In this document: positions 14,939-33,281 of the stretch, piece by piece | Layout of the letters: every line of letters starts with the position of its first letter | How positions within the stretch are numbered: position 1 is the stretch's first letter | Origin: Acholeplasma sp. CAG:878 | GTDB lineage: Bacteria > Bacillota_I > Bacilli_A > RF39 > UBA660 | Reading direction: 5' to 3' | NCBI GenBank assembly: GCA_000432255.1 | Contig: HF989928.1 | Span: forward strand, 17,260-81,259 | Length of the DNA stretch: 64,000 bases | Notes under the pieces: generated by a model | Databases searched by the model: none | The model's input: the letters and a program-made list of their open reading frames with translations, nothing else | What the model was told of the DNA's origin: nothing | Position numbers and translations under genes: made by a program

Positions 14939-14958
14939 GGAAAGATTTTATGTGATTA
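14934..14958. other. attL: 5-bp crossover core CCTCC (14934-14938) plus element-side arm TTATGTGATTA (14948-14958)
   Basis: The core is shared with 32943-32947. The arm is the inverted partner of TAACCACATAA at 32920-32930. Confidence 0.75.
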
Positions 14959-15002
14959 GGCTATCATTTTTTTCTTGATTTTACTGCATTTTTATTTTTT
15001 CT

Positions 15003-15056
15003 AAAAATAGTATAGGGGATGGTAAGATTGTGTGATTAACAATTTTACCACCCTAT
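15003..15056 (-). terminator. Long hairpin / terminator after the recombinase gene
   Basis: ATAGGG(GA)TGGTAA...TTACCACCCTAT arms with an inner ATTGT/ACAAT stem. T-rich on both sides. Confidence 0.45.
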
Positions 15057-15065
15057 TTTTATTAT

Positions 15066-16691: not shown

Positions 16692-16941
16692 TTACTACTC
16701 CTTCCAATGTGCATAACTTCAATAAGCAATATCATTATACCACAAACTTTTACTGCTTACTATTTTCTAACATCAATTTTAAGTACTCCTCTATTAAATC
16801 AACCAAGTTTTTATCTTTATCGAAAGTTTCAGTTATATTCACTAATCTACACCTCTCCTTTCATTTTATGAAATAAGAACGACTATAAGACTTTATTATC
16901 AAAATTAGAGCATAAAAAAATTAGTTATATTTCAAACTAAT

Positions 16942-17514
16942 CTAGTAATAGAAAATATTATATTCTTTTAATCTATTTCGTTTTCGCTTAACATTTTGAA
17001 GTTCTAATTTGTAAAATTCTAGTTTTTTTAAATAATCTTTACGGAAATAGTTTTCACTTAACCATTTAACGCCTTCTTTAGAAATTATTACTTTACCATC
17101 TTTTAAATACTTAAATGATTGATTATTTCTTTTTTCCATTCTATTAACTGCAACACCAATAACATTTTTACTTCTATTAAAATAACTTCTTAAATCATAT
17201 AAAGATATATCTTTATATTCAAATTTATTATGAGGAAAATTAAGCTCGTCTTCTAATCTTAATATTTGTTTTTTAAAGAAAACAATTTCAGCATCTAAAT
17301 AAAATAGATTGTTATTTAAATAAACTTCTTCTATCCATTCTACAAGTTCCAATTTTAGATATACTACTCTTTCACCATTCTGAGCAAAATGTTCATCAAT
17401 CCATCTCTCATTTGGATGTCTTCTTTCTAATCTTTTCACTAATCTCTTATACTGTTTCTCACTCATATTAAACTTCTGTAAAACACGCCACTTCTCCATT
17501 GATTTAAATTCCAT
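16942..17514 (-). CDS. Hypothetical DNA-binding-like protein with internal duplication (candidate element regulator or RDF)
   Basis: ATG at 17514 (MEFKSMEKW) is preceded by AAAGGAG. Two halves each end in a similar segment: ERVVYLKLELVEWIEEVY and GKVIISKEGVKWLSENYF. No family recognised. Confidence 0.6.
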   Translation of the reverse strand: MEFKSMEKWRVLQKFNMSEKQYKRLVKRLERRHPNERWIDEHFAQNGERVVYLKLELVEWIEEVYLNNNLFYLDAEIVFFKKQILRLEDELNFPHNKFEYKDISLYDLRSYFNRSKNVIGVAVNRMEKRNNQSFKYLKDGKVIISKEGVKWLSENYFRKDYLKKLEFYKLELQNVKRKRNRLKEYNIFYY

Positions 17515-17785
17515 ATTTCTCCTTTCATTTCTTATCACATTTTAGGTTACAATTAAATCCTCTTTTTAGGTTACATAACCGTGTAATACAATATATCAAG
17601 CATGGTGTATACACACCCATCTAGCTTGTTAGGGAATATCCCTAAAACCCACTAATAATCTCCGACAGTTTAGAAATTTTTTAATCAAATTTTCATTTAA
17701 TATTTCAACTATTTCATAAAATTCATTATCAATTTTTAAAAATATAACTCACCCTCTTTCTTTGATAAAAATAAACATGGACATG

Positions 17786-17811
17786 AAAAAAGAGAGATAA
17801 AAAAATCTCTC
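17786..17811 (-). terminator. Rho-independent terminator inside the element's intergenic region
   Basis: Minus strand GAGAGAT-tttttt-ATCTCTC followed by T6. Confidence 0.65.
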
Positions 17812-17845
17812 AAATAATCCTTCTTTATAATTACCCTATATTACC

Positions 17846-17874
17846 ATAATACCACAAAATAATAGGAATTGCAA
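17846..17874 (-). promoter_or_regulatory. Promoter-operator module A (extended -10 sigma-A type)
   Basis: Minus strand TTGCAA-17 nt-(TGg)TATTAT. Overlapped by the inverted repeat TCCTAT-N22-ATAGGG (17834-17867). Confidence 0.6.
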
Positions 17875-17991
17875 TGGCACGATTTTCATCAAATGCTTCA
17901 CTATCCATTATAAAATAAGGGCTTGTAAAAGAAAAAATAATTTGCAAAAATACAAATTATTTCTATCATCTTACAACTTTCCTATATTATC

Positions 17992-18020
17992 ATTTTAGCA
18001 CAAAATCATAGGACAGTCAA
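17992..18020 (-). promoter_or_regulatory. Promoter-operator module B (extended -10 sigma-A type)
   Basis: Minus strand TTGACT-17 nt-(TGc)TAAAAT. Overlapped by the inverted repeat TCCTAT-N22-ATAGGA (17980-18013). About 75% identical to module A, 146 bp away. Confidence 0.65.
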
Positions 18021-18078
18021 CGGACATGATGCAATATTAACCTTCTTTTCCTGAAATTCTATTGAATTTATATATTAT

Positions 18079-21000
18079 TTAATGCACTCTAAATTCATCA
18101 ATTAATACACCTGCAATTTCATTGTCATGAGCTATCAATATACATAAAATATCTTCATAAGACTTAATTAATTCTTCATCTAATTTTATTTTATCGCTAT
18201 ATTTTGTAAATGATTTAATAATTATCATATTAATAATAATATCTACATCGCCTTTTAATTCTTTTTCTAGAATATTATAGTTACTATTGTTGTAAGATAA
18301 GATTTCTTTTACACTAATTAAAATTTCAGGTAGTAATTCATCAACATTCAGTAAATATAAAGATTTAATAGCATCCCTTATATAATAAATTCCGTACTTT
18401 GAAAACTGCCTGTTTAAAAACATTTTATCTTCATAGCTATAACTTGTTTTTATCTCCGAAGGATTCCACTTACAATCTCTTGATGCATTAAAGAAAAGAC
18501 ATTTATATAATTGCTTTTTTACTTTTTCATTTTTAATATTAACAATTCTTTTTTCAACTTCTGATATCTTCTTTTTACAGATATTTCTCCTAGAAGCATT
18601 ATTATAAGAATCATAAAATTCAGCAATAAAACCACCCATAATTTTCTGATAAAATTCTATTGCTTCCTCTTGAAATATTTCAAAATTAATATCTTTAAAC
18701 AAAAAATCAATCACATTTTCATTATATTCTAATGTGTAAATTAATTCTTTTTGTATAAAAGAAACTAATTCAAATTCACTATATGTATCAATGATTTCAT
18801 AATATAGCCTATCTTCTTTACAAGAGTCATATATATTTATCATGCATTTCAACAATTCTTTTAGAATTTTTTCAAAAGATTTGTTACTTAAAGTCATTCC
18901 ACAATTAACAATTTTAAATAGTAATTGTATATCATAATCATCAATATTGAACTGATCAAAATTTAATTTTTTTTCATCAAACAAATAATCTTGTATAACT
19001 TGTTCTTTTAAGCTTTCATACTTTTTTTCGCGACTTTCTTCAAGTTGATAATCCACACCAGAAAGATTGGGCACAAAATTAGGCTTAAATACAAATCCAG
19101 ACTCTTTAACATACGTAGCATTATATTTTTGATGATTCATTTCGTCTTCTGAAAGTTTGATGATAGTATTAAATATAATTCTAGATAAGTTAGAATTACC
19201 TAACAAATACTGAGATATTTTTAATTGTATTTGTTTAATAATACCATCATGTGTATCATTTATAATGCATTTCAAAATTATTGTTTTAATTTTATTTTTT
19301 ATTTCATCACTTGTATCTTCATATAATTGACCTAATAAAATATTAATTAATTGTGGTTCAAAAATAAAAACTTCGTTTTCAAATATTTTTTCCAGTCCAG
19401 TAATCCAGAAATCACAAAAATTATTTCTTTCTAATGTAGATAATTTTTCTTCTTTTAGGGCTATGGAGATAAAACATATTAAGATGGATTCATATCCACT
19501 AGTTCTATCACTATTGCTATTTATAATACCATTTAATTCTTCAATACAATTTAGGAGCTTATCTCTATCGTTTTTTCCTCTTTTTCTATCTCTAATATAA
19601 TTATCAATTTTATTTTCTAATTCAACATAAATCTCATTTTGTTTTTCATGTAAATCTGTCACTTTTTTTGCTTCACCAGTAATTTTAGTTTCAATCATTG
19701 ATGTATTTTTATCAACTTCAGTTATTACAGCATTTCGCATATCGATTTTTTGTATTTGAAGATAATTAATTGCATTATCCTCAGTATTAGTAATAATAGT
19801 ATATAAATAATCCAATATTTTAAAAACCCGTTTTTGAAAATCAAAACCAAAACTAATTTGCAAACTTATAGCATAATTTTCAATATGAATTGCACATTTT
19901 TTATCTAATTCATATCTATATTTTATTTCTGGCAACCCAATTTTTAATAATAATTGTTTTTCTAGCATTTGTAATTGAGAGTTATTTAAATATAAGGAAT
20001 ATCTATGAGTATCCCAATTTATAATATCAATACTCGTAACTAAATCTAAGGCATATCCAGGAAACTCATTTTGAAAATGTAGTCCTATATTCTCTATTAC
20101 TGTCAATAAAATTACGTTATTTGATTTTGAATAAATTTTATTTTTAATATTTAATAGTATCTTTTCAACATTTTCTTTATCAGATAAATTCTGTTGAATA
20201 AAATTAATTATGGAATCTTTAATATAAAATACAATATCACTTAACAAATCAGGAACATATCCGTCCCTTGTACCAGCCATCCACATATTATTATTTCCAT
20301 AATATTGCTTAATTTCATTTGTATCAATAAATTTTATTTTTACTTTAAGAACATTGTCGGGTGAGTTTTCTGCATAAACGTCAACAGAATTATTTATAAA
20401 ATCAATTGCCCAATCTAATCCAATATAAAAGTTTACTCTAAAAAGATTCCACAACAAAACATTTTTATTTGGTGTTTGAAATGAATACTTATAATCTTCA
20501 CATAATCCATAATCATTCTCGACATTACTATGATAATAAAATTCATTATTTGAGTTTTTTTTGATCCACAGAGTATTAGCAATAAAACACATTTCATGTG
20601 GCAATTCTTTAACAAGATTATAGTGTGCATTTTCTGAAATCCATTGTAATATTTCTTCCAACATTCTCTGATTTTTTTTACTTTCGCTGTTATAATCCTC
20701 TAATAATTTAGTGAAAAAGTTCTTTAACCATTCAGAACAAGTTTCTGAAAGTTTGAAAAGTACAACAAGATATTTATCAATATATTCAATGACATTGAAC
20801 CACTCTTTATCGACTTTTTGGAAAGCATCATCAACAAAAAATTCTAAAATTGAACAAACAAGTATATCAATTTCTTTTAATCTGTTATTGTTTTGATTTG
20901 TATAGTCTAAACAAAGTTTTGCAACTTTAGACTCATTAATAGCATTTTTTAAATATAACTTTTCTTGAGCAATTATTTTTATTATATTTTTACGACTTCC

Positions 21001-22821
21001 ACCAGTTGGAATCAATATAGCTTTTGGAAATTCATTATTAAAATCAACTAATTTCAAATCGAAGCAATAAATATTGCAAATATCTATAAATTCATCTAAT
21101 AAATTATTATCTAAAATATTAAATATATTTTTTTCGAAGAAATTGTCATTATAATTTGATTTTAATATTCCAATTTCAGTTTGCTTTTTCCACTCGTTAG
21201 ATACGCAATTAGAAAATACCAAGTTATTTATAAATTTATCCTGATTTTCTTTAGTAAATAATTTATTAGAAATCCATATTTGATATCTTCTATAGACACA
21301 TCTACCCATTTTTTCTATTTTTTTATAAAAATTATCATATTTCCCTTTACAAGAGATAAACTGTTCATCAAAAAATTGTTCAAAACATATGTCTTCAAAT
21401 ATATCATATTTTAAACGAATACCCTCTTTATTACGTATAACTATTTCTTCTGAAATTAAAGCAGAAATAATATTAGAATCAATATCTTTCTCACTGACTC
21501 CTAAAATAAATTTTTTTGCTCTGTCAAAAACTATTTTTTCTATTGCCTTTCTAACATTAGATACTTTAATATTATATTTTTTAGTTTCAGACTTCAAACA
21601 AATTATATTTTCCCAAATATAATATCGGAGTTTATTAATATCATCTATACAGTCTGGATTAATATTATATGACATAATGATATTTATATAAAAAGGTATT
21701 TTAAGCAAATCGTTATAGCTATTATTTTGTGCTAACTTGTTTATAATTGGGTATTTTTCTTTAATTAAATTTAACTCTTTTGATGAGATTTCGTCTATCT
21801 CATACAATTTAATCATATAGTTAGATTCAAGTTTTATAAATGCATTATTATCATTTGATCTACATGAAGTTATTATATGTGCATTCTCATATTTTGATAC
21901 TGTGGAATATAATGATTCTAATAATTCTAGTTTAGTTTTTGACGCATCAGCAATAAATTCTAAAGCATCTATAAAGAATACAATTCTTTTACCATTTAGA
22001 AAATCTAACATAGTTTTAATATCAAAATCCCAAATACTATTTAGATGAGTTTCTTCAACAAATCTTTCAGCACGTGCAAATAAGACCAATTCCTCATCAT
22101 CAAGGTATTTTTTGCATAAAACTGACTTCCCGCTACCAGCAATCCCTTGAATGGATATAAATTTATTATTATCATCTTTTATTTTTTTCAAAAAATCTGA
22201 TCTATCAATTTCATATTCGCCATTTATTTTTACATCTATATTTTTTATACCAACATTTTTGCTAATATCTAAGGCTTCACTAAATTTTAGTGATATTTCG
22301 TTGTAATTTTCAAATTCTTGTTTAAGTAATATGAAGATATCTTCTTGAAATTTTATATCATTTTTTGATCGTGTTACAATATCTAGAGTAGTTATTAAAT
22401 TCTTGCTTTTATCAAAAGGAATATTACCAATTTGATTTTTTCCAGTATAATTTTTAATTTTTGTAATTTTATCATTATGTAACACAAAGAAATAGACTTC
22501 TGTAATTTCAGAATATTTATTATCCTTGTTATCTCTGACATTTTCTAAAGTACTTTTAATCTTATTTTCCACATCAAAAGTTGTACTTACTTGAATATAT
22601 ATTTTTTTATCTTCTGATATCAAATCAAAATAAGGAAAATTACATCTCTCATCATTTAAATTATAAAATTTTTGATTAAAGTATAGTTCACAAATATTCT
22701 GCGCAAATAATTCAAACATTTTTGCATTATCAAATAGTCCATTTTTATTAGCTAATTTTATCTTTTGTTCATATGCAGACATATAATCTATAATAAAATC
22801 CATTCTCTCTTTTGAATACAT
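18079..22821 (-). CDS. Giant STAND (NACHT-like) P-loop NTPase with SMEK-like N-terminal domain and about 1150-aa helical C-terminal region; candidate antiphage NLR/Avs-like protein
   Basis: Walker A ISIQGIAGSGKS (DNA about 22124-22150). Walker B RIVFFIDALEF. HIITSCRS and LLKIPFYINIIM resemble the NACHT sensor and winged-helix motifs. N-terminal NAKMFELFAQNICELYF...NFPYFDLISEDKKIYIQVST resembles the SMEK-domain pattern (from memory). Adjacent to Type III R-M. Confidence 0.7.
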   Translation of the reverse strand: MYSKERMDFIIDYMSAYEQKIKLANKNGLFDNAKMFELFAQNICELYFNQKFYNLNDERCNFPYFDLISEDKKIYIQVSTTFDVENKIKSTLENVRDNKDNKYSEITEVYFFVLHNDKITKIKNYTGKNQIGNIPFDKSKNLITTLDIVTRSKNDIKFQEDIFILLKQEFENYNEISLKFSEALDISKNVGIKNIDVKINGEYEIDRSDFLKKIKDDNNKFISIQGIAGSGKSVLCKKYLDDEELVLFARAERFVEETHLNSIWDFDIKTMLDFLNGKRIVFFIDALEFIADASKTKLELLESLYSTVSKYENAHIITSCRSNDNNAFIKLESNYMIKLYEIDEISSKELNLIKEKYPIINKLAQNNSYNDLLKIPFYINIIMSYNINPDCIDDINKLRYYIWENIICLKSETKKYNIKVSNVRKAIEKIVFDRAKKFILGVSEKDIDSNIISALISEEIVIRNKEGIRLKYDIFEDICFEQFFDEQFISCKGKYDNFYKKIEKMGRCVYRRYQIWISNKLFTKENQDKFINNLVFSNCVSNEWKKQTEIGILKSNYNDNFFEKNIFNILDNNLLDEFIDICNIYCFDLKLVDFNNEFPKAILIPTGGSRKNIIKIIAQEKLYLKNAINESKVAKLCLDYTNQNNNRLKEIDILVCSILEFFVDDAFQKVDKEWFNVIEYIDKYLVVLFKLSETCSEWLKNFFTKLLEDYNSESKKNQRMLEEILQWISENAHYNLVKELPHEMCFIANTLWIKKNSNNEFYYHSNVENDYGLCEDYKYSFQTPNKNVLLWNLFRVNFYIGLDWAIDFINNSVDVYAENSPDNVLKVKIKFIDTNEIKQYYGNNNMWMAGTRDGYVPDLLSDIVFYIKDSIINFIQQNLSDKENVEKILLNIKNKIYSKSNNVILLTVIENIGLHFQNEFPGYALDLVTSIDIINWDTHRYSLYLNNSQLQMLEKQLLLKIGLPEIKYRYELDKKCAIHIENYAISLQISFGFDFQKRVFKILDYLYTIITNTEDNAINYLQIQKIDMRNAVITEVDKNTSMIETKITGEAKKVTDLHEKQNEIYVELENKIDNYIRDRKRGKNDRDKLLNCIEELNGIINSNSDRTSGYESILICFISIALKEEKLSTLERNNFCDFWITGLEKIFENEVFIFEPQLINILLGQLYEDTSDEIKNKIKTIILKCIINDTHDGIIKQIQLKISQYLLGNSNLSRIIFNTIIKLSEDEMNHQKYNATYVKESGFVFKPNFVPNLSGVDYQLEESREKKYESLKEQVIQDYLFDEKKLNFDQFNIDDYDIQLLFKIVNCGMTLSNKSFEKILKELLKCMINIYDSCKEDRLYYEIIDTYSEFELVSFIQKELIYTLEYNENVIDFLFKDINFEIFQEEAIEFYQKIMGGFIAEFYDSYNNASRRNICKKKISEVEKRIVNIKNEKVKKQLYKCLFFNASRDCKWNPSEIKTSYSYEDKMFLNRQFSKYGIYYIRDAIKSLYLLNVDELLPEILISVKEILSYNNSNYNILEKELKGDVDIIINMIIIKSFTKYSDKIKLDEELIKSYEDILCILIAHDNEIAGVLIDEFRVH

Positions 22822-22965
22822 CCTAATCACCCTAACAACTTATTTAATAATATAGAAAAATTTTTTTTATTTTGATTTATCACTAAAGATTTAGTATTTA
22901 CTTTTTTTAGCCTTTTTTACAAAGAATATCTCGAATATAAAATCTATACCATTTTTTATAAAAAT

Positions 22966-25620
22966 CTAATCAACTTTGTATTGTTCAGTTAAATATTTAA
23001 AAGTTGAATTACTTTGTATCTTACTTGAAGGTATCAAAACATATTCCCAATGTTTATTACCTGTTGAGTCTGCCCATTTTGATACTAATTGACAATATGA
23101 AAGTGCTCTTTCCTGTTTTGCTAAAACATCAGCATCATCTAATTTATTATCTGCTTTTACTTCAACTAAATATACAATAGATTCTGTTTCTACTACAAAG
23201 TCTGGTTCATAACGTTTTCCACCATTATATATAATATTAAACTCATTTGGACTAGGTCTTAACCATGTACGTACAAAATTATCTTCTCTTTCAAGCTGTC
23301 TGGCAAGTATAAGTTCTGGTTCACTATCAAATTTTGCTGAACTAAATACACCTCTCTTTATTCCATCAAATAATATTGAAGTTATTTTTCCATCGTTTTT
23401 AGAATCATATGAATCAAAAATATTCTTTACTTTACTATAACTGTAATTTGATTGAAAATTTATATTACTATTACTAAAAGCTTCTTCCTTTATCAATCCT
23501 TCGTTTCTAATAAAATGTCTTAACATTTGAGAATAAATTTCTGATGTTATTTCATTTTTATACATCATAACTATGTTTTTTGTTCCGTCTACACCATATT
23601 GTTGTTCATAATAATCTGTCAACTGACTTATTAATTTAAATAATAGCTCTGAACTTTTTTCATAATCAATTTCTGCTTTTTTTCGTAACTCATCAACAAT
23701 CGACTTTTTAGGATTCAATATATCAAAAGTAATATAACCTTTTTCTATTTTTTCTTCGTCTGAGGAATCTAATAAATTTCTTAAAATTAATTCATTTTCT
23801 ATAGGTTGCTGATTAAATTTAGTTAAATCCAAATCAAAATCATCAAAGTAGTATTCACCTTCTTCTCTTTCTACCTTAATCTTTGGTATTAAAATAAATT
23901 TATTAAGAATTTGATCGTGTGTCTTAATAATATTTTCTTTTATCCAATTTTCAATCGGATTTTTATTTTCATCATAAATTTTACCATAATCCTTATCTTT
24001 TTTTATTTCATATTCTATAGCATCTTTTATTTTAATTTTTCCTTCATCCGTAAAATTATTATTAGAACTTAAAGTGTAATTTTCAACATTCTTTACTAAT
24101 AAATCATTTATTCTATTTGCAAAACCATATTTTTCGCTTTCCTCACATACAACAAGTTTATCACACAATTCATCATCTGAGGGATATTCCAGAGGTAAGC
24201 GCGTAAAAATTATTTTTTCCTTTTCTAGTTCTTCAGCTTTTATAATATTACCTTTATTAAAAATTGAATCACCTTTTTGGGCTTCTTCTATAATTTCCTT
24301 AAATTTATCATGTGCTGTAAGCATAACAGAGTCAATATCCTTATCACCAGTTCTTTCACCATAAGGTAATCGCAGTCCTCTTCCTACCATTTGTTCCCTT
24401 AATATTTTTGAACTTGCTGTCCTTAAAGGCACAATTGTATAAAGATTATTTACATCCCATCCTTCTTTTAACATATTAACATGAATTACTATTTCAATTG
24501 GATTATCAACTTTTTCAACATCCAAAAGCAACTTTGTATTAACTTCAGTTTCAACGCCTGACATTTTTGAATTTATTGTTATTGTTTTAAATTTATAATG
24601 TCCATTCTGAAAGTCATCAGATTTTATATACTTTTCTATTTTTGAAGCATGTTCAGTGTCTTTACATACAACTAACATAAATGGTTTTATTAAATCCTTT
24701 TTCATACTTCTAGAATAATAAAATAGTTTTTCCTTAATGCGTTTATGACATAAAATTCCATCATTTAACATCAATTTATCTATCTCATCATCACCAAAAT
24801 TATAAAAATTAATATCCGTTCTAGTAACTGCAAAAGGAACTCTTGTATATCCGTCTTTTATTGCTTCAGATAATGGATATTCGTACACAACATTTTTAAA
24901 TGGAATTTGCTTACCTTTTACATTTACTAAAGGTGTGGCAGTCAATTCTAAGCCTAAAATTGGTTTCAGATTGTTTATAGTTTCCATTCCTCTATCTGCT
25001 CTATAATGATGTGATTCATCCATAATAATGACTAAATCTTTCATTTCTGCTAATTCATCATAAAAAGACATTCCTCTTACTTCACTGAAAGCTTTCATTT
25101 TTGTATTTTCTTTATCAAATTTACTTATATTATAAACATAAATTGTTACTTCAGAATCAAATAAATTTATCATTCTATTAAAATCATCATCAGCGACTAC
25201 TCTTGGAGGATTATTAAAACATCCAATTCCTTTAAACACATATTTAGAATTATCTGGATTTCCTAGGTCTCTTTTTAATTTTTCATATATAGTTGTAGAT
25301 GGAGCAATTACTAAAAAATTTTTAATATTATAATTTGTATAAAGATATGTTATGAATGCTCCCATAAGTCTAGTTTTACCAACACCTGTTGCTAATGCAA
25401 ATGTTAATGAAGTAAATGTTCTTTCAAATTCAGTAAATATTGGATATTTTGAATTAATTACCTTTAAATTATTAATATTATCTTGGTTATATTCACTCAT
25501 TAAGTTCGTACTTTTTAATATATCATCCAATATTTGCAATGACTTTTCTTGCGGGTTTCTTAACGACATTATACCAGATATATAATCAATAGAATACTTC
25601 ATACTATTTACATCATTCAT
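22966..25620 (-). CDS. res: Type III restriction enzyme, Res subunit (SF2 helicase + PD-(D/E)xK nuclease)
   Basis: LATGVGKTRL (motif I), IIMDESHHY (motif II), MLKEGWDVNNLYTIV, QMVGRGLRLP (motif VI), C-terminal YEPDFVV...YLVEVK. ATG at 25620 lies 9 nt after GGAGG and overlaps the mod stop by 8 nt. Confidence 0.93.
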   Translation of the reverse strand: MNDVNSMKYSIDYISGIMSLRNPQEKSLQILDDILKSTNLMSEYNQDNINNLKVINSKYPIFTEFERTFTSLTFALATGVGKTRLMGAFITYLYTNYNIKNFLVIAPSTTIYEKLKRDLGNPDNSKYVFKGIGCFNNPPRVVADDDFNRMINLFDSEVTIYVYNISKFDKENTKMKAFSEVRGMSFYDELAEMKDLVIIMDESHHYRADRGMETINNLKPILGLELTATPLVNVKGKQIPFKNVVYEYPLSEAIKDGYTRVPFAVTRTDINFYNFGDDEIDKLMLNDGILCHKRIKEKLFYYSRSMKKDLIKPFMLVVCKDTEHASKIEKYIKSDDFQNGHYKFKTITINSKMSGVETEVNTKLLLDVEKVDNPIEIVIHVNMLKEGWDVNNLYTIVPLRTASSKILREQMVGRGLRLPYGERTGDKDIDSVMLTAHDKFKEIIEEAQKGDSIFNKGNIIKAEELEKEKIIFTRLPLEYPSDDELCDKLVVCEESEKYGFANRINDLLVKNVENYTLSSNNNFTDEGKIKIKDAIEYEIKKDKDYGKIYDENKNPIENWIKENIIKTHDQILNKFILIPKIKVEREEGEYYFDDFDLDLTKFNQQPIENELILRNLLDSSDEEKIEKGYITFDILNPKKSIVDELRKKAEIDYEKSSELLFKLISQLTDYYEQQYGVDGTKNIVMMYKNEITSEIYSQMLRHFIRNEGLIKEEAFSNSNINFQSNYSYSKVKNIFDSYDSKNDGKITSILFDGIKRGVFSSAKFDSEPELILARQLEREDNFVRTWLRPSPNEFNIIYNGGKRYEPDFVVETESIVYLVEVKADNKLDDADVLAKQERALSYCQLVSKWADSTGNKHWEYVLIPSSKIQSNSTFKYLTEQYKVD

Positions 25621-27361
25621 AAAATTCATCCTCCATATCATTGGAAATATCATTTACAACATTTAGATTATAATTATTTACATTAAAAACACATTTATTT
25701 AATAACATCTCTGGTATTTTTTTTATCATTATATTTTTGTACTTATTTAACAGTTCTTCATCATAAGCAGTACACGCAATAACAAGATACTCTTCAGGAA
25801 GCATAGAACCCTTTATTTTTTCTAGTGTCATTGAATTTAAAAATTGAGTTGTTACATATAAATAACTATTTTCATTTCCTATTGATTGTTTCCAAAAAAT
25901 TTCTTTATCAGGATTGTATTCAAAACCTTCATGGAGTGCAACTGATCTTGCTAGCATTTCTGGATTGTAGTTTTTATTAATAACCATTTCCCCAAAAGAA
26001 TCTTCATTTATTAAAGTTGGTGCAAGTTCATAAAAATTGTAACCTCCTCCACCATTCCAATTAACAATCGAGGTAATTCCACCATTATCTTTTCCATCAA
26101 TGATTAAATTTAATCTTTTTATACAATGCGTATATACATGTTCACCCATCTCAATTCCTATCCAATTTCTATTCATTTTATGAGCAACCGCTGCTGTAGT
26201 ACCACTACCTAAAAATGAGTCTAAAACATAATCTCCTTCATTTGTACTCATTTCTATTATCCTGTTTAACAATAATTCTGGTTTTTTACCATTAGGAAAT
26301 TCTACTTGACCTTCTTTTGTTAAATTATTAAGATTTATTCCATCCCATAAAGTTCCTTGTAAGTCTTTCTTTAACCATTTTCCATCTTTATATTCTGTTA
26401 CATCTTTTAGCCAAGTAAGTAATCTAAATTTATCGCCTTTATAGAATTGCTCATATTCATTTCCTTTGTTTTTACCAGTCTTAGGAATATATTTGATGCT
26501 AATTACATCTGAATGTTTAATGCCTTCTAATCTTTCCATTACTCTTGGTCTAATTGAAGATTGTGGCATTGCAGTTGTATGAATTCGATCCATATACTTA
26601 TAATATACTTCATTTTCTGAAATATTTTCTTGCTTTGCAATTTGAGATATTGACATAAATTTTGCATTTTGACGATTATATATTTTAATTTCATTTCCAT
26701 CGCCATCTACTGTTGATGCTAGATATTCAGGGTCTCCTTTTTCATATAATACCGACGTATATTTCCAGCTAATACCTTCATCTTTATATTTTTTTACCAA
26801 TTCACATATTTCTGTATACGCATATGCATTTTGTAGCCATTTAAAATTATCATATTTTTTAGTATATGTAAGGATAAATTCAATATTCTTTTTTAATCTT
26901 TTATCTTCCCCTCCACCACTTGCACCTGCAATATTCTTCATTTTAACTGTTATAGTATTCAAATAATTATTTCTACCAAAAATTTCATCACATAATACTT
27001 TCAAATATGCATATTCATTATCATCAATTTGAATAAATATTATACCATCCTCTCTCAATAATCTCCGCAAAATAACTAAACGTTCCTTCATTAGGTTTAG
27101 CCAAATACTATGTTCTAGATTATCATTATAATGTTCAAATGCACTTCCAGTATTATATGGAGGATCTATATAAATACATTTTATCCTTTCTGAATAATCC
27201 TTTTCTAATGCTTTCAATGCTAAAAGATTGTCCCCATGAATGAGAATGTTTCGAGAATTTTTATCACCATAACTTCTTTCATCATCCTTAATCAATATTC
27301 TAGGTTCTACCTTTTCTTCATTGTTTTTTCCTATCCATGTTAATTCTAATTTACTTTTCAT
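25613..27361 (-). CDS. mod: Type III R-M Mod subunit, N6-adenine DNA methyltransferase
   Basis: CIYIDPPYNTGSAF (motif IV) and DSFLGSGTTAAVAHKMNRNWIGIE (motif I), in beta-class order. ATG at 27361 (MKSKLELTWIGK). Confidence 0.93.
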   Translation of the reverse strand: MKSKLELTWIGKNNEEKVEPRILIKDDERSYGDKNSRNILIHGDNLLALKALEKDYSERIKCIYIDPPYNTGSAFEHYNDNLEHSIWLNLMKERLVILRRLLREDGIIFIQIDDNEYAYLKVLCDEIFGRNNYLNTITVKMKNIAGASGGGEDKRLKKNIEFILTYTKKYDNFKWLQNAYAYTEICELVKKYKDEGISWKYTSVLYEKGDPEYLASTVDGDGNEIKIYNRQNAKFMSISQIAKQENISENEVYYKYMDRIHTTAMPQSSIRPRVMERLEGIKHSDVISIKYIPKTGKNKGNEYEQFYKGDKFRLLTWLKDVTEYKDGKWLKKDLQGTLWDGINLNNLTKEGQVEFPNGKKPELLLNRIIEMSTNEGDYVLDSFLGSGTTAAVAHKMNRNWIGIEMGEHVYTHCIKRLNLIIDGKDNGGITSIVNWNGGGGYNFYELAPTLINEDSFGEMVINKNYNPEMLARSVALHEGFEYNPDKEIFWKQSIGNENSYLYVTTQFLNSMTLEKIKGSMLPEEYLVIACTAYDEELLNKYKNIMIKKIPEMLLNKCVFNVNNYNLNVVNDISNDMEDEFYE

Positions 27362-27503
27362 AATATACACCACACTTATAATTTCTCTTCTAATCTTAAA
27401 TACTTATTTTTATCTAATTAAAAAATTTTTTAAATTAAAATTTTTTGGATGATTGCTAATATTAATTATACTATAAAAACTGGCAAAAATCGACTTTTTA
27501 TGA

Positions 27504-28539
27504 TTAATTAGTATCAATTATTGTTTTTCTTAATTCTTCTTCTAAAGAATGCGATAATTGTATTAAATATTGTTCATTAAAATCAATATCAGTTCGATTT
27601 GACATCTTTTTTTCAATAAGATCAAATATTTCATTTCTATCTTTTTGAATAGCAATTCTATCAAAAATTAATCCAGCCCATGAATTATCAAAATAATGGC
27701 AGCCCATAAATATTAATTTTAAATTTTTATCATTTGTTGCAAAGAAAATTTCTTTATCTGAAAAATGGTAGTGAAAATTATTGATTGATGACAAATAAGA
27801 GATATCCCAAGCCTAATTTTTACATCCCCTAATAATTTTTTCAAAATCTTTACTTTTAATATTTTTTGGTGCCTTAATAGTCGAATAGTTAGTGAATAAT
27901 AAAATTGCATAGGTAATATCATACATAGATAATTTTAAATTATCATAATACCAATCAAGATACTTTAAAATTTTGTTTTTTGTAGATAATTTAGTTAGAA
28001 AAACCTCTGCAATTTTTAAAACCGAACAATAACTAAGTAAATATGTAATACTTTTATTTTTATAATTTGCATGGCGGTGAAATTTTACTGATATATCAAA
28101 TTTTTGTAATTTATAGTTCCCATTTTTTAAATGATTTAAAAAAACTAAACTTGGAATTTCAGATAGATAAGTCAACAACTCATTTAATTGCCTAATGACT
28201 TCTGAATTTTCTGTTAAATCTCCATATTCATTCATTGCCAATCCAATATTATATTGTAATCCATTACAATTACAAAACATCAAAAATGATAGTAGCATTA
28301 TCATATTATCTTCTTTTTTTTAATTCACCATTTTTAAGATAATCAAACAACATTGAAGTTATATTTCTATCTAATACAATAATTTTGTCTTTCTTATTCA
28401 TCAAATATTCTTTGTAATGAGTAAATTTTCCTTCCATAGCATAATAAGGATGAAAAATAATTTGAAAAGAATTAACTAAATCAAATATATCATTTAAATC
28501 ATTATCCTCTAAAATAATCAAATCGTTCATACAAATCAC
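27504..28539 (-). pseudogene. Decayed single gene (about 340 codons) now read as three ORFs of 77, 163 and 96 aa; function unknown
   Basis: ORFs 28306..28539 and 27813..28304 are joined by removing one A from an A8 run (28314-28321): ..NGELKK|EDNMIMLL... ORFs 27813..28304 and 27504..27794 are in the same frame, separated only by one TAG (27813-27815): ..RGCKN*AWDISYLSSINNFHY... Confidence 0.5.
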
Positions 28540-28711
28540 CTCAAAACATTAGCATAGCTATTCTTATAATAATTAAACAGTTAATTATATTATACCATGT
28601 CTATATGGTTTTATCGTCTTTATCTATTTGTTTTAATAATTGATTTTAAATAATTTATTATGAATTAAAAACCGTATTCGGAAATCCACATACTCGTAAT
28701 GGTGCACTGGA

Positions 28712-29008
28712 TTAATTTTCATATGGTTTTTCATAAATTATATATTCATAATCAAATCTGCCATTTTCATCTCTAGCTTCAATAACTTTTAAATATTTAT
28801 TAACTTTTAATTCATTTAATATTTTTCTAATAGTATCTCTACTTTCAACACAAATACTTGATAATCCTAATATAGAATAGTCCCAATTATCTGGTAATGA
28901 TAACATTAAAGATAATAAACCCTTTGCCTTTAAACTTAATCTTCTATCCTTCAAATGATAATTTCCCATAACTATATATCCTTCTTCTCTATTTGATTTT
29001 ATTTTCAT
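28712..29008 (-). CDS. Winged helix-turn-helix DNA-binding protein (HTH_36-like, common on Firmicute mobile elements)
   Basis: LSLKAKGLLSLMLSLPDNWDYSILGLSSICVESRDTIRKILNELKVNKYL pattern. Confidence 0.65.
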   Translation of the reverse strand: MKIKSNREEGYIVMGNYHLKDRRLSLKAKGLLSLMLSLPDNWDYSILGLSSICVESRDTIRKILNELKVNKYLKVIEARDENGRFDYEYIIYEKPYEN

Positions 29009-29036
29009 ATTCTCATATCCTTTCTTTTCTCAAAAT

Positions 29037-29059
29037 AAAAAAGCCTATATAAATAGACT
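29037..29059 (-). terminator. Terminator after the rnlB-like gene
   Basis: Minus strand AGTCTAT-ttat-ATAGGCT (one G-U pair) followed by T6. Confidence 0.5.
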
Positions 29060-29086
29060 TTACGCTCAACAAACAATTTCATAAAT

Positions 29087-29440
29087 CTAATTGTTTAATA
29101 CATAATTTATTGTTGATTTTGTTAATGTACCATTATTTAATATATCAACATGTTCTTTTAAATATTGTTTAACAGTTTTTTTACTTGATTCTGATACATC
29201 ATTTGGATTTATGATTATACTATTATAGCTTCCTTCTTCAAAGTTTAATAATACATACCTATTAAATGAATATCCATTTCGCAAAAACAAATCTACAATA
29301 ACAGAGAATTTATTTCCTTGAGTTTTTGAAAGTTCATTGTATATATCTTCAGTAAAAAAATATAAGTCATCAATATTGTTCAAAAAAATATAATTTTTAT
29401 TTATATCCTCTTCAAAATTAAAAATTTCATAATCGTTCAT
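29087..29440 (-). CDS. RnlB-like antitoxin
   Basis: 117 aa, directly downstream of the RnlA-like gene as in E. coli rnlAB. VIVDLFLRNGYSFNRYVLLNFEEG versus E. coli RnlB ILFDLLCANGPEWNRFVTLEMKYG (recalled sequence). Confidence 0.6.
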   Translation of the reverse strand: MNDYEIFNFEEDINKNYIFLNNIDDLYFFTEDIYNELSKTQGNKFSVIVDLFLRNGYSFNRYVLLNFEEGSYNSIIINPNDVSESSKKTVKQYLKEHVDILNNGTLTKSTINYVLNN

Positions 29441-29452
29441 AAATATTCTCCT

Positions 29453-30499
29453 TTATTTATAAAAAACATTATAAGATTTTTCAATATTTTCAATAATTTC
29501 ATCAACTATTTCTTTTGCTTCTTGCCAATTTTCAATTATTCTTGTTTGTGATGGTTCAATTGTTGCATGCAAGAACACATTTCTCTTATTTGAATATATT
29601 TTATTTAATTTTATTAAATATTCTTTTTCATCATTACTTATTAATTTATCATTTTCAATTTTACTTGAATTTCCTCTATCTTTATAAAACATTGAAAATT
29701 TATTTTTTTTATCAATCTTATATGAATACTTATTCACTAATACTTTTGTTAAGTAACCTTCTAATGTTTTAAATGCACCTGTAACACAACAAGTATAATC
29801 CTCACTTTCTTTTATTGTTTTAAGTGATGTGATTGATCCTGAAAGAGATTTTATCAATGCTTCATCTAAAAAAGTATATGAATTTGATAAATTTGCTTTA
29901 ATTGTTTCTCTTATATCAGCTGTTGAAATTTTTGTTGTTGTAAACATGTTGTTTATTTCTATAATACTATCAAGAGATACAGAAGATAATTGAGATAATA
30001 AGGTCATTATTATACCAAAAGTTTTAAAAGGTCTACCTTGAATCATAACTTTATTAGTTTGAGGGTAAAATGTTATATCAATATGATCTTTATTATACCC
30101 AATAAAACGAATTCTATTATTACTATAATATTTAATTTGAATTTCAGAAGAAAACTCATCTTCAACACATTTAATAAGTTCTTCAATTGTTTCTTTATTA
30201 CATGAAAACACTGTTTGTTTGGGTTGAGCACTATCAATAGGATAACCTAATTGAGCTAAATATTTTATTAATCTATTAGATTCTTCAGCATTTTTTCCAA
30301 TAGGCATCATTTTTACAGACATCTTTTTAACCTTAACATAAAATTTAACTTTGCATTGTTTTCCTGATATAAAAAAGTTGCATGTATATTCTTCTTTACC
30401 TTGAACTTTAATATAATTACTAAAAACAAAATCAATATTCTTTTTAGAATAATCTTTGATATAAGTTTCTATATCATCTGGATTTATATATACTTCCAT
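29453..30499 (-). CDS. RnlA/LsoA-family toxin (HEPN-type endoribonuclease)
   Basis: 348 aa. TNKVMIQGRPFKTFGIIMTLL versus RnlA TGKLQIQGRPLSCYRVFTFNL. DYTCCVTGAFKTLEGYL versus DYCMLLYPELRTIEGVL. Rx4H motif is RNVFLH. Confidence 0.75.
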   Translation of the reverse strand: MEVYINPDDIETYIKDYSKKNIDFVFSNYIKVQGKEEYTCNFFISGKQCKVKFYVKVKKMSVKMMPIGKNAEESNRLIKYLAQLGYPIDSAQPKQTVFSCNKETIEELIKCVEDEFSSEIQIKYYSNNRIRFIGYNKDHIDITFYPQTNKVMIQGRPFKTFGIIMTLLSQLSSVSLDSIIEINNMFTTTKISTADIRETIKANLSNSYTFLDEALIKSLSGSITSLKTIKESEDYTCCVTGAFKTLEGYLTKVLVNKYSYKIDKKNKFSMFYKDRGNSSKIENDKLISNDEKEYLIKLNKIYSNKRNVFLHATIEPSQTRIIENWQEAKEIVDEIIENIEKSYNVFYK

Positions 30500-30501
30500 T
30501 A

Positions 30502-31815
30502 CTACTTCACTCCTTCAACACAAATTGCTTCTGTTTTTTCATTATCATTTATTATTATTTTATATTTGACTCTTTTGCCCTTTTGTAATAATTGTTTATT
30601 ACCAATAACACTACGCATATTAAAATATATATTATCTTCATTATTATCTTGCTTTATAAATCCCGAATATCCATTTTTCAATATCTTATCTATTTCACCA
30701 AATAAATATTCATTATCATTTTGTTCAATATATTCTCTTGCTATAGATTTTAATTGATACATATTTGGTTTTTTGGTAACATCTAAATCATATTCAGATA
30801 TATAATATTGTAATTCCTCTGATAAATTCCAACCCATTAAATTTCTAAAATAAGCACACGCTTGATAATATTTTATGGCATTATCTTTTTTACCCTGCGA
30901 TTCCCAACATAATCCCAAGTTATGCAATAAGGTCACTTTTGTTTCATCAATTAATTCATTCTGAATAGCTTTGCAATTATACAATAAACTCTCTTCAAAC
31001 TTCCCAAAGCTATAGCAAATATTTGCAAGTTTATGCCATAAAAACCAGTAATTTTCTTTTTCTGCAAATTTTTTATAATTTTGAAAATCAATTTCTCTAT
31101 TACTAGAAATCATACACTTTGAATATAGTATTCTACCTGTAATCCAAATTTTATTTTTATAATGAAATTTTTTAATTATTTCTAACGCTTCTTCACCAAT
31201 TAAAATACATTTTTCATATTGTCCTATTTTTTCATATGACTTAACCATATTTTGATAATAAAATTCCTTGGACGATGCTTGTTCAAACTCGTCTTCTCCT
31301 ATTTTTGTTGTAAAACATTCCTCAGATAATATTGTTGGATTAAGCTTTTCTAACCATTGCACAATCTTTTCTTGATTACTTCTAGATGTTAGTGAAGATG
31401 GTTTATTGTTATACACTTTTACAACTTTTTTGATAGTCAAAACATATGGTGTAAGAATTTCATTAGTTCCTTCTCTTTGTACAGAATGTTTAATAATTAA
31501 TTCAGCCATTTTTATGAATTCTTCAAAGTTAGACTCATCATTATCTATATAATCTTTAATATATATGTCATATACACACCAACATAAAACCGATATTACA
31601 TAACTGTTTTTTCTTATATATGAATCTTTAGGAATTTTAGAAAACTCACTTAAAAAAATATCTGATTTATTACATTTACGCAATGAATTACCATACTCTG
31701 CAAAAAGATTATGATCATCCTTATTAGAAGAATTCCATATTTTTTTATATAATACTAACGCATCATCAAAATTTTTATTATTATAAAATTCTTTTGCTTG
31801 ATTCCTTTCGTTCAT
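30502..31815 (-). CDS. TPR-like repeat protein with C-terminal cold-shock/OB-like domain
   Basis: Helical repeat body. C-terminus GEIDKILKNGYSGFIKQDNNEDNIYFNMRSVIGNKQLLQKGKRVKYKIIINDNEKTEAICVEGV fits the CSD pattern G.V...G.GFI...DIF.H...V....L..G..V.F. Its stop lies 2 nt before the rnlA-like ATG, with the RBS GAAGGAG inside its last codons. Confidence 0.6.
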   Translation of the reverse strand: MNERNQAKEFYNNKNFDDALVLYKKIWNSSNKDDHNLFAEYGNSLRKCNKSDIFLSEFSKIPKDSYIRKNSYVISVLCWCVYDIYIKDYIDNDESNFEEFIKMAELIIKHSVQREGTNEILTPYVLTIKKVVKVYNNKPSSLTSRSNQEKIVQWLEKLNPTILSEECFTTKIGEDEFEQASSKEFYYQNMVKSYEKIGQYEKCILIGEEALEIIKKFHYKNKIWITGRILYSKCMISSNREIDFQNYKKFAEKENYWFLWHKLANICYSFGKFEESLLYNCKAIQNELIDETKVTLLHNLGLCWESQGKKDNAIKYYQACAYFRNLMGWNLSEELQYYISEYDLDVTKKPNMYQLKSIAREYIEQNDNEYLFGEIDKILKNGYSGFIKQDNNEDNIYFNMRSVIGNKQLLQKGKRVKYKIIINDNEKTEAICVEGVK

Positions 31816-31907
31816 AATATCAGTCCCCCACAACAACTTAATATAAGTATAACATATATCTTGCTAATTTTAATTTTTTATAGAAAATACACATCAAAAA
31901 TTTTATT

Positions 31908-32828
31908 TTACAGTTCTTTAGGACAATTTGGTTTATAATTAACATCATTAAATCCATAAACTTTTTTACAATCATTACAAATGATAGCAATAAAATCTAA
32001 ACCATTAATATTGTGTCCTTCACCTTTTTCTATAACTATATTATCTCCTTTACATATAGGACAATATTTATAATCCTTTTGACTGCATGCATCTCTAACT
32101 ATTTCATAACCATTATGAAAATCGTATTTGGGAATAAATTCTCCTGTATCAACACTTTTAATTCTTCCAAACATAAACTCTAACTTATCCACAGTTTTTT
32201 CCAAATGATAATGTCCACAATACCATTTATCATAATCTAATCTTTGCTCTACTTCATTTAGAAAATACTCCATAGATTTATCTACTGCTATTTGTGGTAA
32301 ACTTAATTTAAAACTTTCTTTGGGTTCATATTTTAATGGACAAGTATGAGACAAAATTATATCAACATGTTTTCCTGAATACTTGTCTAATATATCTAAT
32401 CTTTCTTGTTCAGTTAATTGTTCATCTTTAAACCAAGGATATCCTTTACTTATCCTATAATCTTTATCAATAGAATAAGCACCACCTATTACTAAAATAC
32501 TTTTACCATCGATATTATAAAGTTCTCCATTTTTAGCAAATATTAAATTAGGATATTCATCTTCTACAAATACTTTACCACCAAACATTTCTACTTCATG
32601 ATAACTTGAAATGTTTTCTGGTCTTTCTTCATGATTACCTTGAATACAGAAAAATTTAAAATTATATCGTTTTAATCTTTTCTTTAACTTTTTATCATAT
32701 TCGTCTAAATAATAATTAATACCCACATAGCCTAAGATAATCATGATATCATCTTCATTTAATCCTAAATGACCGAATCTATAAAAATCTCCGTGAGTAT
32801 CACCAGTTATATATAACATTCTTTTCAC
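31908..32828 (-). CDS. Metallophosphoesterase (calcineurin-like) with C-terminal double CxxC zinc ribbon
   Basis: LYITGDTHGDF, QGNHE, ILSHTCP, CGHYH. C-terminal CPICKGD...CNDCKK. Confidence 0.8.
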   Translation of the reverse strand: MKRMLYITGDTHGDFYRFGHLGLNEDDIMIILGYVGINYYLDEYDKKLKKRLKRYNFKFFCIQGNHEERPENISSYHEVEMFGGKVFVEDEYPNLIFAKNGELYNIDGKSILVIGGAYSIDKDYRISKGYPWFKDEQLTEQERLDILDKYSGKHVDIILSHTCPLKYEPKESFKLSLPQIAVDKSMEYFLNEVEQRLDYDKWYCGHYHLEKTVDKLEFMFGRIKSVDTGEFIPKYDFHNGYEIVRDACSQKDYKYCPICKGDNIVIEKGEGHNINGLDFIAIICNDCKKVYGFNDVNYKPNCPKEL

Positions 32829-32919
32829 CTCTCATTTTTAAAGTAATTTGATATATCTATTATACCATCATATCCAGTAAAATAAGAAGCTTATTAAAGT
32901 TATACACTATGCCTAGAAT

Positions 32920-32947
32920 TAACCACATAATACGCGTCCTCGCCTCC
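32920..32947. other. attR: element-side arm TAACCACATAA (32920-32930) plus core CCTCC (32943-32947)
   Basis: See attL. The arms are a 10/11 inverted repeat, 26 nt apart once the ends are joined. Confidence 0.75.
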
Positions 32948-33202
32948 TGCATTTATGTGATTAGATATCACTATAACATCTTTATCATTTCCAAAAGCAT
33001 CTAATATTCTATTAACTCTATCAGTAGGATTAACCGTTTCATCACTATTTCTAGTTAGTTTAACAGGTATCCCTAGTTCCCTAAACCTATCATACATGTA
33101 TTCAGATATAGCCAAAGTCATGTTTTTTTCAGTAATTCCATTACCTAATGCACCCGAATCTTCCCCACCATGACCAGCGTCTATTACAATCTTTCTATTC
33201 AT
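32943..33202 (-). pseudogene. N-terminal 86 codons of the same Amidase_3 gene (the ORF continues 14 codons into the element before TAA at 32900)
   Basis: MNRKIVIDAGHGGEDSGALGNGITEKNMTLAISEYMYDRFRELGIPVKLTRNSDETV...VISNHINAGG, then unrelated EDAYYVVNSRHSV*. RBS AGGTGA precedes the ATG at 33202. No signal peptide. Confidence 0.9.
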
Positions 33203-33281
33203 TATAATCACCTATAATAATGTATGAAAAAAAGAAAAATAAGTTAATACAAAAAAACAGGCAACAAAATACCCGTTTTAA

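Follow-up and report, generated by a model that had tools for sequence, protein, structure and literature searches.

The toxin-antitoxin pair RnlA-RnlB is among the best-studied anti-phage pairs of its kind. The window considered here, a 64,000-nucleotide stretch of contig HF989928.1 from Acholeplasma sp. CAG:878 (assembly GCA_000432255.1, positions 17,260 to 81,259 of the forward strand), carries a compact and intact cassette of 2.7 kb in which an RnlA-like and an RnlB-like gene are preceded by a gene for a TPR protein fused to a cold-shock domain (CSD). The cassette is probably a conflict system of the TOTE class in which an RnlA/RnlB toxin-antitoxin module serves as the effector branch.

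TOTE systems, named after their TPR, OB, TBP and Effector parts, were reportedly defined on computational grounds by Aravind, Iyer and Burroughs in 2022. Like them, the window cassette encodes a TPR-CSD fusion beside a protein in which TBP-like domains, recognized here by their fold, are joined to a nuclease effector. RNase H modules, which have been reported for TOTE, are found among the relatives of the window cassette but not in the cassette itself. A further likeness is that distant homologues of the TPR-CSD protein contain the Pfam domains TBP-TOTE or S1CSD-TOTE-2 or have them next door, whereas the window proteins themselves match the Pfam CSD and RnlA models and not the TOTE-labelled ones. 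The TALON systems also combine a TPR-CSD fusion with TBP proteins; they are confined largely to Chloroflexota, however, and include in addition a helicase resembling YprA as well as a NERD nuclease, neither of which is present in the window cassette.

Among the closest known relatives of the effector pair are RnlA-RnlB (RNase LS) from Escherichia coli and the plasmid-borne LsoA-LsoB, which are type II toxin-antitoxin and anti-T4 systems. Garcia-Rodriguez et al. (2021) described E. coli RnlA as a TBP1-TBP2-HEPN protein with the catalytic residues R255, E258, R318 and H323, in which TBP1 is needed to bind the substrate and which by itself shows little sequence specificity (PMC8266594). In the same system, RnlB binds the canonical HEPN dimer of RnlA and blocks the substrate groove (PMC8266594). 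The enterobacterial pairs are described as two-gene modules, with the toxin gene preceding the antitoxin gene. A survey of HEPN proteins from 2013 mentions RNase LS proteins fused to TBP and to RNase H domains, the latter with an N-terminal caulimovirus-type RNase H, but no TPR-CSD partner (Anantharaman et al., PMC3710099). The literature on RnlA linked to a TPR or cold-shock partner, and on DUF7017, a family weakly matched by the TPR-CSD protein, was also searched, and nothing relevant was found; papers on CoCoNuT and on NTP-dependent conflict systems had no bearing on the cassette either.

Layout of the cassette

The three open reading frames (ORFs) read by the earlier note are present on the minus strand, co-directional and in the order TPR-CSD, RnlA-like, RnlB-like, with spacers of 2 and 12 nt. 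The genes and the junction between the first two are as follows.

30502..31815, minus strand: TPR-CSD gene, 437 aa plus stop, identified by PADLOC, Pfam and AlphaFold; probable TPR-OB component of a TOTE-type system
29453..30499, minus strand: gene for an RnlA-type HEPN endoribonuclease, 348 aa plus stop, identified by Pfam, profile comparison and Foldseek; probable TBP and Effector component
29087..29440, minus strand: gene for an RnlB-type antitoxin, 117 aa plus stop, identified by Pfam, profile comparison and invariant residues
30497..30516, minus strand: predicted coupling junction read from the sequence, with the ribosome-binding site (RBS) GAAGGAG (30510-30516), the stop codon TAG of the TPR-CSD gene (30502-30504), 2 nt (30500-30501) and the ATG of the rnlA-like gene (30497-30499)

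The GAAGGAG site of the rnlA-like gene thus sits within the final codons of the TPR-CSD gene, 2 nt separating the two genes, just as had been noticed before. At the second junction, the rnlB-like ATG lies 12 nt past the rnlA-like stop and is served by an AGGAG site. Translation of the TPR-CSD gene begins at the ATG at 31815, preceded by a GGGGGA ribosome-binding site, and the homologues begin there too; an alternative TTG start, giving a protein of 444 aa, finds no support among the homologues.

The three proteins

The 348-aa protein had been assigned to RnlA from short sequence blocks, and that assignment holds. In the window protein, Pfam finds RnlA-toxin_DBD (E=1.9e-12), RnlA_toxin (E=4.9e-6) and, weakly, RnlA_toxin_N (E=1.9e-3). 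Conservation and profile work was based on 22 orthologues, across which the corresponding models are matched in 22/22 (DBD), 21/22 (NRD) and 13/22 (NTD) cases. The profile built from them retrieves LsoA (5hy3) at 3.5e-14 over residues 63-329 and RnlA (4i8o, 6y2p) at about 1e-5. An AlphaFold model made from the same alignment has a predicted local distance difference test score (pLDDT) of 89.4 and a predicted template modelling score (pTM) of 0.83. In Foldseek it superposes on full-length E. coli RnlA (6y2s, 6y2r, 4i8o) with E=7e-15 and a TM score of 0.64-0.66 over about 356 columns, and no unrelated fold comes near the RnlA score. The architecture is TBP1 (residues ~1-90), TBP2 (~94-172) and HEPN (~176-348), in the naming of PMC8266594. 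PADLOC has no match for either the RnlA-like or the RnlB-like protein.

The presumed active site is also preserved.

29567..29584, minus strand: HEPN catalytic motif R306-N-V-F-L-H311 (Rx4H), from the alignment of the orthologues

Residues R306, H311 and E247 are invariant in the alignment, and R306-NVFL-H311 aligns with the RHGLFH motif of LsoA. K244, nearly invariant, occupies the position of RnlA R255, a conservative substitution, yet a difference. The blocks on which the first assignment had relied (IQGRP, TLEGYL and the Rx4H motif RNVFLH) turn out to be real and conserved, appearing among the orthologues as MIQGRP and as (K)xLEGYL, the latter containing the invariant E247. As shown by domain matches, catalytic residues and the structural model, the second gene encodes a predicted RNase of the RnlA type, in which the HEPN Rx4H site is intact and two domains are TBP-like in fold.

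In comparison with RnlA-RnlB and LsoA-LsoB (4I8O, 6Y2P, 5HY3), the cassette shares the TBP1-TBP2-HEPN fold with its Rx4H motif, a homologous antitoxin family and the order of toxin and antitoxin genes. The two differ in that the window toxin is only ~14% identical to RnlA and ~18% to LsoA and has K244 in place of R255, in that the host belongs to Bacillota and the carrier is a serine-recombinase element, and in the coupled upstream TPR-CSD gene, which is nearly obligatory here.

The 117-aa protein is of the RnlB type. Pfam RnlB_antitoxin matches it at E=4.4e-8, the family profile finds the RnlB chain 6y2p_C at E=1e-8, and the DLxxxNGxxxNR core pointed out earlier is real, with D49, N54, G55, N59 and R60 invariant. 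An RnlB-like gene is present downstream in every related locus with room for it.

The 437-aa protein, for which a TPR-like body and a cold-shock or OB fold at the C terminus had been suggested, has this architecture.

30718..31815, minus strand: TPR-like alpha-solenoid spanning residues 1-366, into which a beta-hairpin is inserted (168-179), from the AlphaFold secondary structure and Foldseek
30511..30705, minus strand: cold-shock/OB domain, residues 371-435, with five beta-strands, from Pfam CSD, profile comparison and the model

PADLOC identifies the protein as PDLC01170, 'TPR repeats containing protein fused to cold shock-like domain (OB-fold)', at E=2.5e-37. Pfam reports TPR_2, TPR_1, CSD and a weak DUF7017. 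The CSD match (PF00313) in the window protein is below the 27-bit cut-off (E=4.9e-5, 23.6 bits); among 18 TPR-CSD homologues, 17 match this model at E<=0.01, and the family profile retrieves the cold-shock domains of Unr/CSDE1/CspA, the best at 2.6e-6. The AlphaFold model (pLDDT 90.9, pTM 0.83) consists of an alpha-solenoid followed by a five-strand barrel of the OB type. Foldseek matches it best to consensus TPR, OGT and LGN TPR solenoids (E to 2.4e-7), that is, to generic TPR solenoids, and to no informative specific relative. NCBIfam gave nothing useful for any of the three cassette proteins.

Both parts of this protein contain conserved residues, to a different degree. The CSD keeps an RNP1-like SGFI (G385, F386, I387) and an RNP2-like IYFN (Y397, F398), of which G385, I387 and F398 are invariant. 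The most conserved motifs of the protein, LCWCxYD, TPYVLTxKKV, ASSKEFYYQ and KFHYxNxxW, all lie in the solenoid, and the mean frequency of the top residue is 0.57-0.60 there versus 0.45 in the OB domain.

Conservation of the three-gene linkage

The linkage was followed in both directions. In a forward survey, species-representative genomes were scanned with the TPR-CSD alignment, which gave 27 loci, nearly all from metagenome-assembled genomes (MAGs) of Bacillota, and 24 of these had enough downstream DNA. A reverse survey of metagenomes, seeded with the RnlA-like alignment, gave 60 loci, about 47 of which had room upstream.

All 24 genome loci keep the order TPR-CSD, RnlA-like, RnlB-like, at identities down to 33%, and in all of them the first junction lies between -23 and +4 nt, from a 23-nt overlap to a 4-nt gap. 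In the metagenomes, a TPR-CSD gene is found upstream of the RnlA-like gene in approximately 46 of the 47 loci. Co-occurrence of the TPR-CSD family with rnlA homologues is thus near-obligate in both surveys, and the three-gene operon that the earlier note had read from the junction of a single locus is upheld by the order and tight junctions of the others. Of the outcomes that the earlier note had named as refuting its reading, a lack of co-occurrence is contradicted by these surveys, and a C-terminal domain of another fold by the OB barrel of the model. Conservation at this level supports the prediction that the three genes form one operon. Among the sampled Bacillota relatives, the RnlA/RnlB pair almost never occurs without its TPR-cold-shock partner.

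The clear exception is locus L031 (1110-3880), where an IS21-type element with istA/istB-like ORFs sits directly upstream of intact RnlA-like and RnlB-like genes; to judge from this arrangement, it is a natural two-gene derivative of the cassette. Two more loci that seem to lack the upstream gene, L064 and L087, have the look of chimeric assemblies of low coverage, and a third, L085, retains a diverged CSD tail upstream of a frameshifted RnlA gene. On this last metagenome contig (L085, 241-1261), the frameshift divides the RnlA-like gene into two overlapping ORFs, and AbiD/F-like and DUF262-like genes are found downstream.

Co-divergence was analyzed from the pairwise-identity matrices of the three proteins in 22 loci. 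The correlation is r=0.93 for TPR-CSD and RnlA and 0.89 for TPR-CSD and RnlB, as compared with 0.90 for RnlA and RnlB. These values match that of the known pair, so the third gene has been passed on together with the two others no less faithfully than they with each other. Gene order, junctions and divergence thus indicate that the cassette, with its apparently translationally coupled junctions, is co-inherited as a unit across Bacillota.

Alternative partners of the TPR-CSD family

The TPR-CSD family extends far beyond RnlA. An exhaustive profile search found 1644 cluster representatives at E<=1e-3, 296 of them at E<=1e-30, and a length of ~430 aa is shared by nearly all. Genetic contexts were sampled at growing distance from the window protein (n=8), and contained an RnlA-type partner in five cases, a TBP-TOTE helicase in one and a HEPN fusion in one.

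The RnlA-type partners come in several forms. In L093 and L095, the TPR-CSD homologue is followed by an RnlA-like gene and a small downstream gene. In L094 and L096, what follows is a Cauli_VI-RNase H-RnlA fusion, with an RnlB where the contig allows. On the megaplasmid of Bacillus sp. BR3 (NZ_CP152438.1; L098, 4042-7801), the genes for RNase HIII (rnhC), the TPR-OB protein, RnlA and RnlB stand in a row. PGAP, which annotates the genes one by one and does not name a system, labels the last two 'type II toxin-antitoxin system RnlA family toxin' and 'RnlB family antitoxin', and the TPR protein has a weak match to Pfam S1CSD-TOTE-2 ('S1/CSD-like domain 2 of the TOTE conflict systems'). The RNase H-RnlA fusions and the RNase HIII-linked cassettes therefore share with the window the HEPN family of the toxin, its position directly downstream of a TPR-CSD homologue and, contig permitting, the RnlB. 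They differ from it in that the window toxin has a TBP-like domain instead of the RNase H module, and no rnhC neighbor.

Other partners are unrelated to RnlA. Beside the distant TPR-CSD homologue of L089 is encoded a RecD2-like helicase carrying PF22721, the 'TATA-binding-like protein domain of the TOTE conflict systems' (TBP-TOTE). In L088 (5001-7138), the homologue is followed by a 241-aa CSD and HIRAN protein, a partner type without an RNase, with a DEAD/MZB helicase and a Mutator-type transposase nearby. L097 (2094-4217) encodes a single 707-aa protein, P0071, composed of a Swt1-type HEPN domain, a TPR/DUF7017 solenoid and two CSD stretches, without an RnlB; by its domain composition, P0071 is a 'Rosetta stone' fusion of a putative RNase effector to the TPR-OB module. 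Still other members of the family are fused to a BT4734-like N-terminal domain or carry, in one homologue, S1 instead of CSD. That such effectors share the TPR-CSD protein suggests a device of general use, through which RNA- and DNA-directed effectors would receive their input or be targeted.

Searches of plasmids and phages by tblastn returned one distant match each, and P0150 had no plasmid match. A scaffold labeled 'Bacteriophage sp.' (MT837669.1; L099, 1317-6176), whose viral origin is unverified, encodes a TPR/DUF7017 protein followed by a 1214-aa UvrD-type helicase with Cauli_VI (RNase H1 N-terminal) domains, and on its domain content this is another TOTE-like pairing.

Assignment to the TOTE class

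The fit to the TOTE class, as far as the class description is available, follows from the distribution of domains: TPR and OB are found in the product of the first gene, two TBP-like domains and a HEPN effector in that of the second, and RnlB would be an added antitoxin. The union of TPR and OB in one protein is agreed on by PDLC01170, Pfam, AlphaFold and the family profile. The effector, a HEPN domain with an intact Rx4H, is joined to the TBP-like domains in the same polypeptide, and the neighborhood of TPR-OB and TBP-effector genes is the one conserved in both surveys. The TBP-like domain of the partner is recognized at the level of the fold, as the model can be superposed on RnlA, in which both NTD and NRD are TBP-like.

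Several results weigh against this reading or against its functional side. The Pfam TBP-TOTE model has no match to the RnlA-like proteins at E<=1, and an hhalign comparison of the RnlA-like profile with one TBP-TOTE sequence (the tail of a helicase) was negative. The TBP part of the assignment relies on fold likeness to RnlA. The accessible portion of the published TOTE definition does not confirm RnlA/RnlB as an explicit branch, and an experimental study of any TOTE system was not found in the literature. The CSD has lost the first aromatic residue of RNP1 and the His of RNP2, so that the canonical aromatic set is only partial. None of the contigs in the viral contig collection encodes an RnlA-like protein, nor did that collection yield a related locus. 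The ligands of the TPR and OB parts, as well as the activating, targeting or restraining nature of their effect on RnlA, are inferred only.

The earlier note implied that the arrangement had no described counterpart, which does not hold: Pfam has models for TBP-TOTE and S1CSD-TOTE-2, and PADLOC has PDLC01170 for the same architecture. The cassette probably belongs to a computationally named class, and the specific instance presented here is new. The value of the discovery is limited to that extent, the class being already named. On the practical side, a compact and intact cassette on a mobile element, together with relatives in a cultivable Bacillus (NZ_CP152438.1), offers a starting point for experiments on TOTE systems.

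Possible roles of the TPR-CSD protein

By analogy with E. coli RnlAB, RnlB would hold the HEPN dimer of the toxin with the substrate groove blocked. Phage infection, for example through host shut-off and loss of the labile antitoxin, would free RnlA, which would then degrade mRNA broadly, so that the infection is aborted or curbed. In the preferred reading, the TPR-CSD protein adds an input or targeting layer to this scheme. Its OB domain may bind single-stranded RNA or DNA, and its TPR groove may bind a protein, which would be either RnlA, held by a TBP-like domain, or a product of the phage. In this way, the TPR-CSD protein would link the release or the positioning of the RNase to the sensing of foreign nucleic acid or protein. 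An input or targeting role is favored because the module serves several unrelated effectors, occurs fused to HEPN and has a solenoid more conserved than its OB domain. The sensor or regulator role that the earlier note had put forward for this protein is plausible, and no experiment on it turned up in the literature.

A more specific form of the input reading, possible but clearly tentative, makes the TPR-CSD protein the trigger of RnlA-type defense. The TPR groove would dock on the TBP-like domain or domains of RnlA, the OB domain would recognize a phage-made single-stranded nucleic acid or an RNA-DNA intermediate, and RnlB would be displaced or overridden. The two-gene RnlAB and LsoAB modules would then be stripped-down derivatives of an ancestral sensor-effector system of three or four components, and these two-gene modules would leave some of the accessory work to RNase HI of the host.

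The TPR-CSD protein might instead be a constitutive subunit that recruits substrates or confers specificity, and not an infection sensor, with the OB domain handing single-stranded RNA (or an R-loop or single-stranded DNA) to the TBP/HEPN enzyme. Such a part, rather unlikely on balance, would resemble the stimulation of E. coli RnlA by RNase HI, or the RNase H and RNase HIII modules that are fused or adjacent in relatives. The requirement for TBP1 in substrate binding by RnlA, an enzyme of little specificity of its own (PMC8266594), speaks for it. So do the relatives with RNase H fused to RnlA or with an adjoining rnhC, which suggest that accessory parts handle nucleic-acid substrates, and the homologue in which OB is swapped for S1, another RNA binder. 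A pure adaptor, however, would have no need of a TPR solenoid 366 residues long and better conserved than the OB domain, and the association of the TPR-OB module with unrelated effectors (helicase, HIRAN, Swt1 HEPN) fits a general input module better.

Less probable still is that the TPR-CSD protein acts as a regulator or second safety catch. It would be either an RNA-binding autoregulator of the mRNA of the operon, or a chaperone or adaptor by which RnlB or its complex with RnlA is stabilized, comparable to the SecB-like chaperone found in tripartite toxin-antitoxin-chaperone systems. A DNA-binding domain is lacking in RnlB, which leaves the pair without the autoregulator that antitoxins usually provide; regulation of mRNA is common among cold-shock domains, TPR domains typically serve as scaffolds in chaperones and adaptors, and the position as first gene of the operon, translationally coupled, would tie the dose of the protein to that of the toxin. 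Yet TPR-CSD homologues accompany effectors that have no RnlB at all, even as fusions to HEPN, and the canonical E. coli and plasmid RnlAB/LsoAB pairs function without a TPR-CSD protein (PMC8266594). The intact RnlA and RnlB ORFs of L031, where the TPR-CSD gene was lost to IS21, also argue, if weakly, against an essential antitoxic role.

That an ordinary two-gene rnlAB has come by accident to follow a TPR gene unrelated to it is suggested by nothing more than the two-gene form of the canonical module, and the chance is negligible, since order, orientation and coupled junction are kept, down to about 30% identity, in independent loci of both surveys, which rule out chance adjacency, and the three proteins co-diverge.

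Transcription signals and neighboring genes

Two further features could be proposed for the borders of the cassette.

31840..31873, minus strand: candidate sigma-70-type promoters, TTAAAA-16-TATACT (with TG) and TTAGCA-16-TATATT, from a consensus scan, in the gap of 92 nt that precedes the TPR-CSD gene
29031..29061, minus strand: possible intrinsic terminator, an AT-rich 9-bp hairpin with a U-run, 26 nt past the rnlB-like stop, from RNA folding, weak

The number of promoter-like sites found by the consensus scan in the AT-rich upstream region is not above the shuffled expectation, so these are candidates only. The hairpin has a minimum free energy of -9.1 kcal/mol, which is not significant (z = -0.59), and a consensus terminator scan found none.

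Just downstream of rnlB lies a gene for a 98-aa HTH_36 protein (28712-29008), followed by three small ORFs (27504-28539) without family matches. On the other side, directly upstream of the TPR-CSD gene, 31908-32828 encodes a metallophosphoesterase whose C-terminal tail resembles a zinc ribbon. This gene is kept beside the cassette in L001 and L002 (93% aa identity) and is absent from the other related loci.

Mobile element and defense context

The cassette is cargo of a serine-recombinase element of ~18 kb (window 14012-33211), with a large serine recombinase at 15066-16691. The element splits an Amidase_3-LysM gene, whose C-terminal part is found at 14012-14938 and whose N-terminal part is found at 32900-33211. 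Between these parts are encoded a SMEK-NACHT giant protein, type III Res and Mod proteins, the HTH_36 protein, the cassette and the metallophosphoesterase. Besides the cassette, the element carries an Avs4-like gene as well as a restriction-modification (R-M) system of type III.

Another gut MAG contains the same element end at 97.5% identity over 8.5 kb (L001, 4600-4990; L002, 4588-4990), and there the adjoining N-terminal amidase fragment has only 65% protein identity. An identical stretch (ATCTAATCACATAAATGCAGGAGGCGAGGACGCGTA) reaches up to or spans the junction of element and amidase. A near-identical element end beside a diverged amidase fragment implies that the element is mobile and site-specific; in different species, it seems to insert specifically at a conserved motif of the amidase. 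The flanks of related cassettes are rich in integrases, ResIII, Eco57I, type I R-M and MADS components, and AbiEii-like ATPases; these cassettes ride on mobile, defense-rich DNA.

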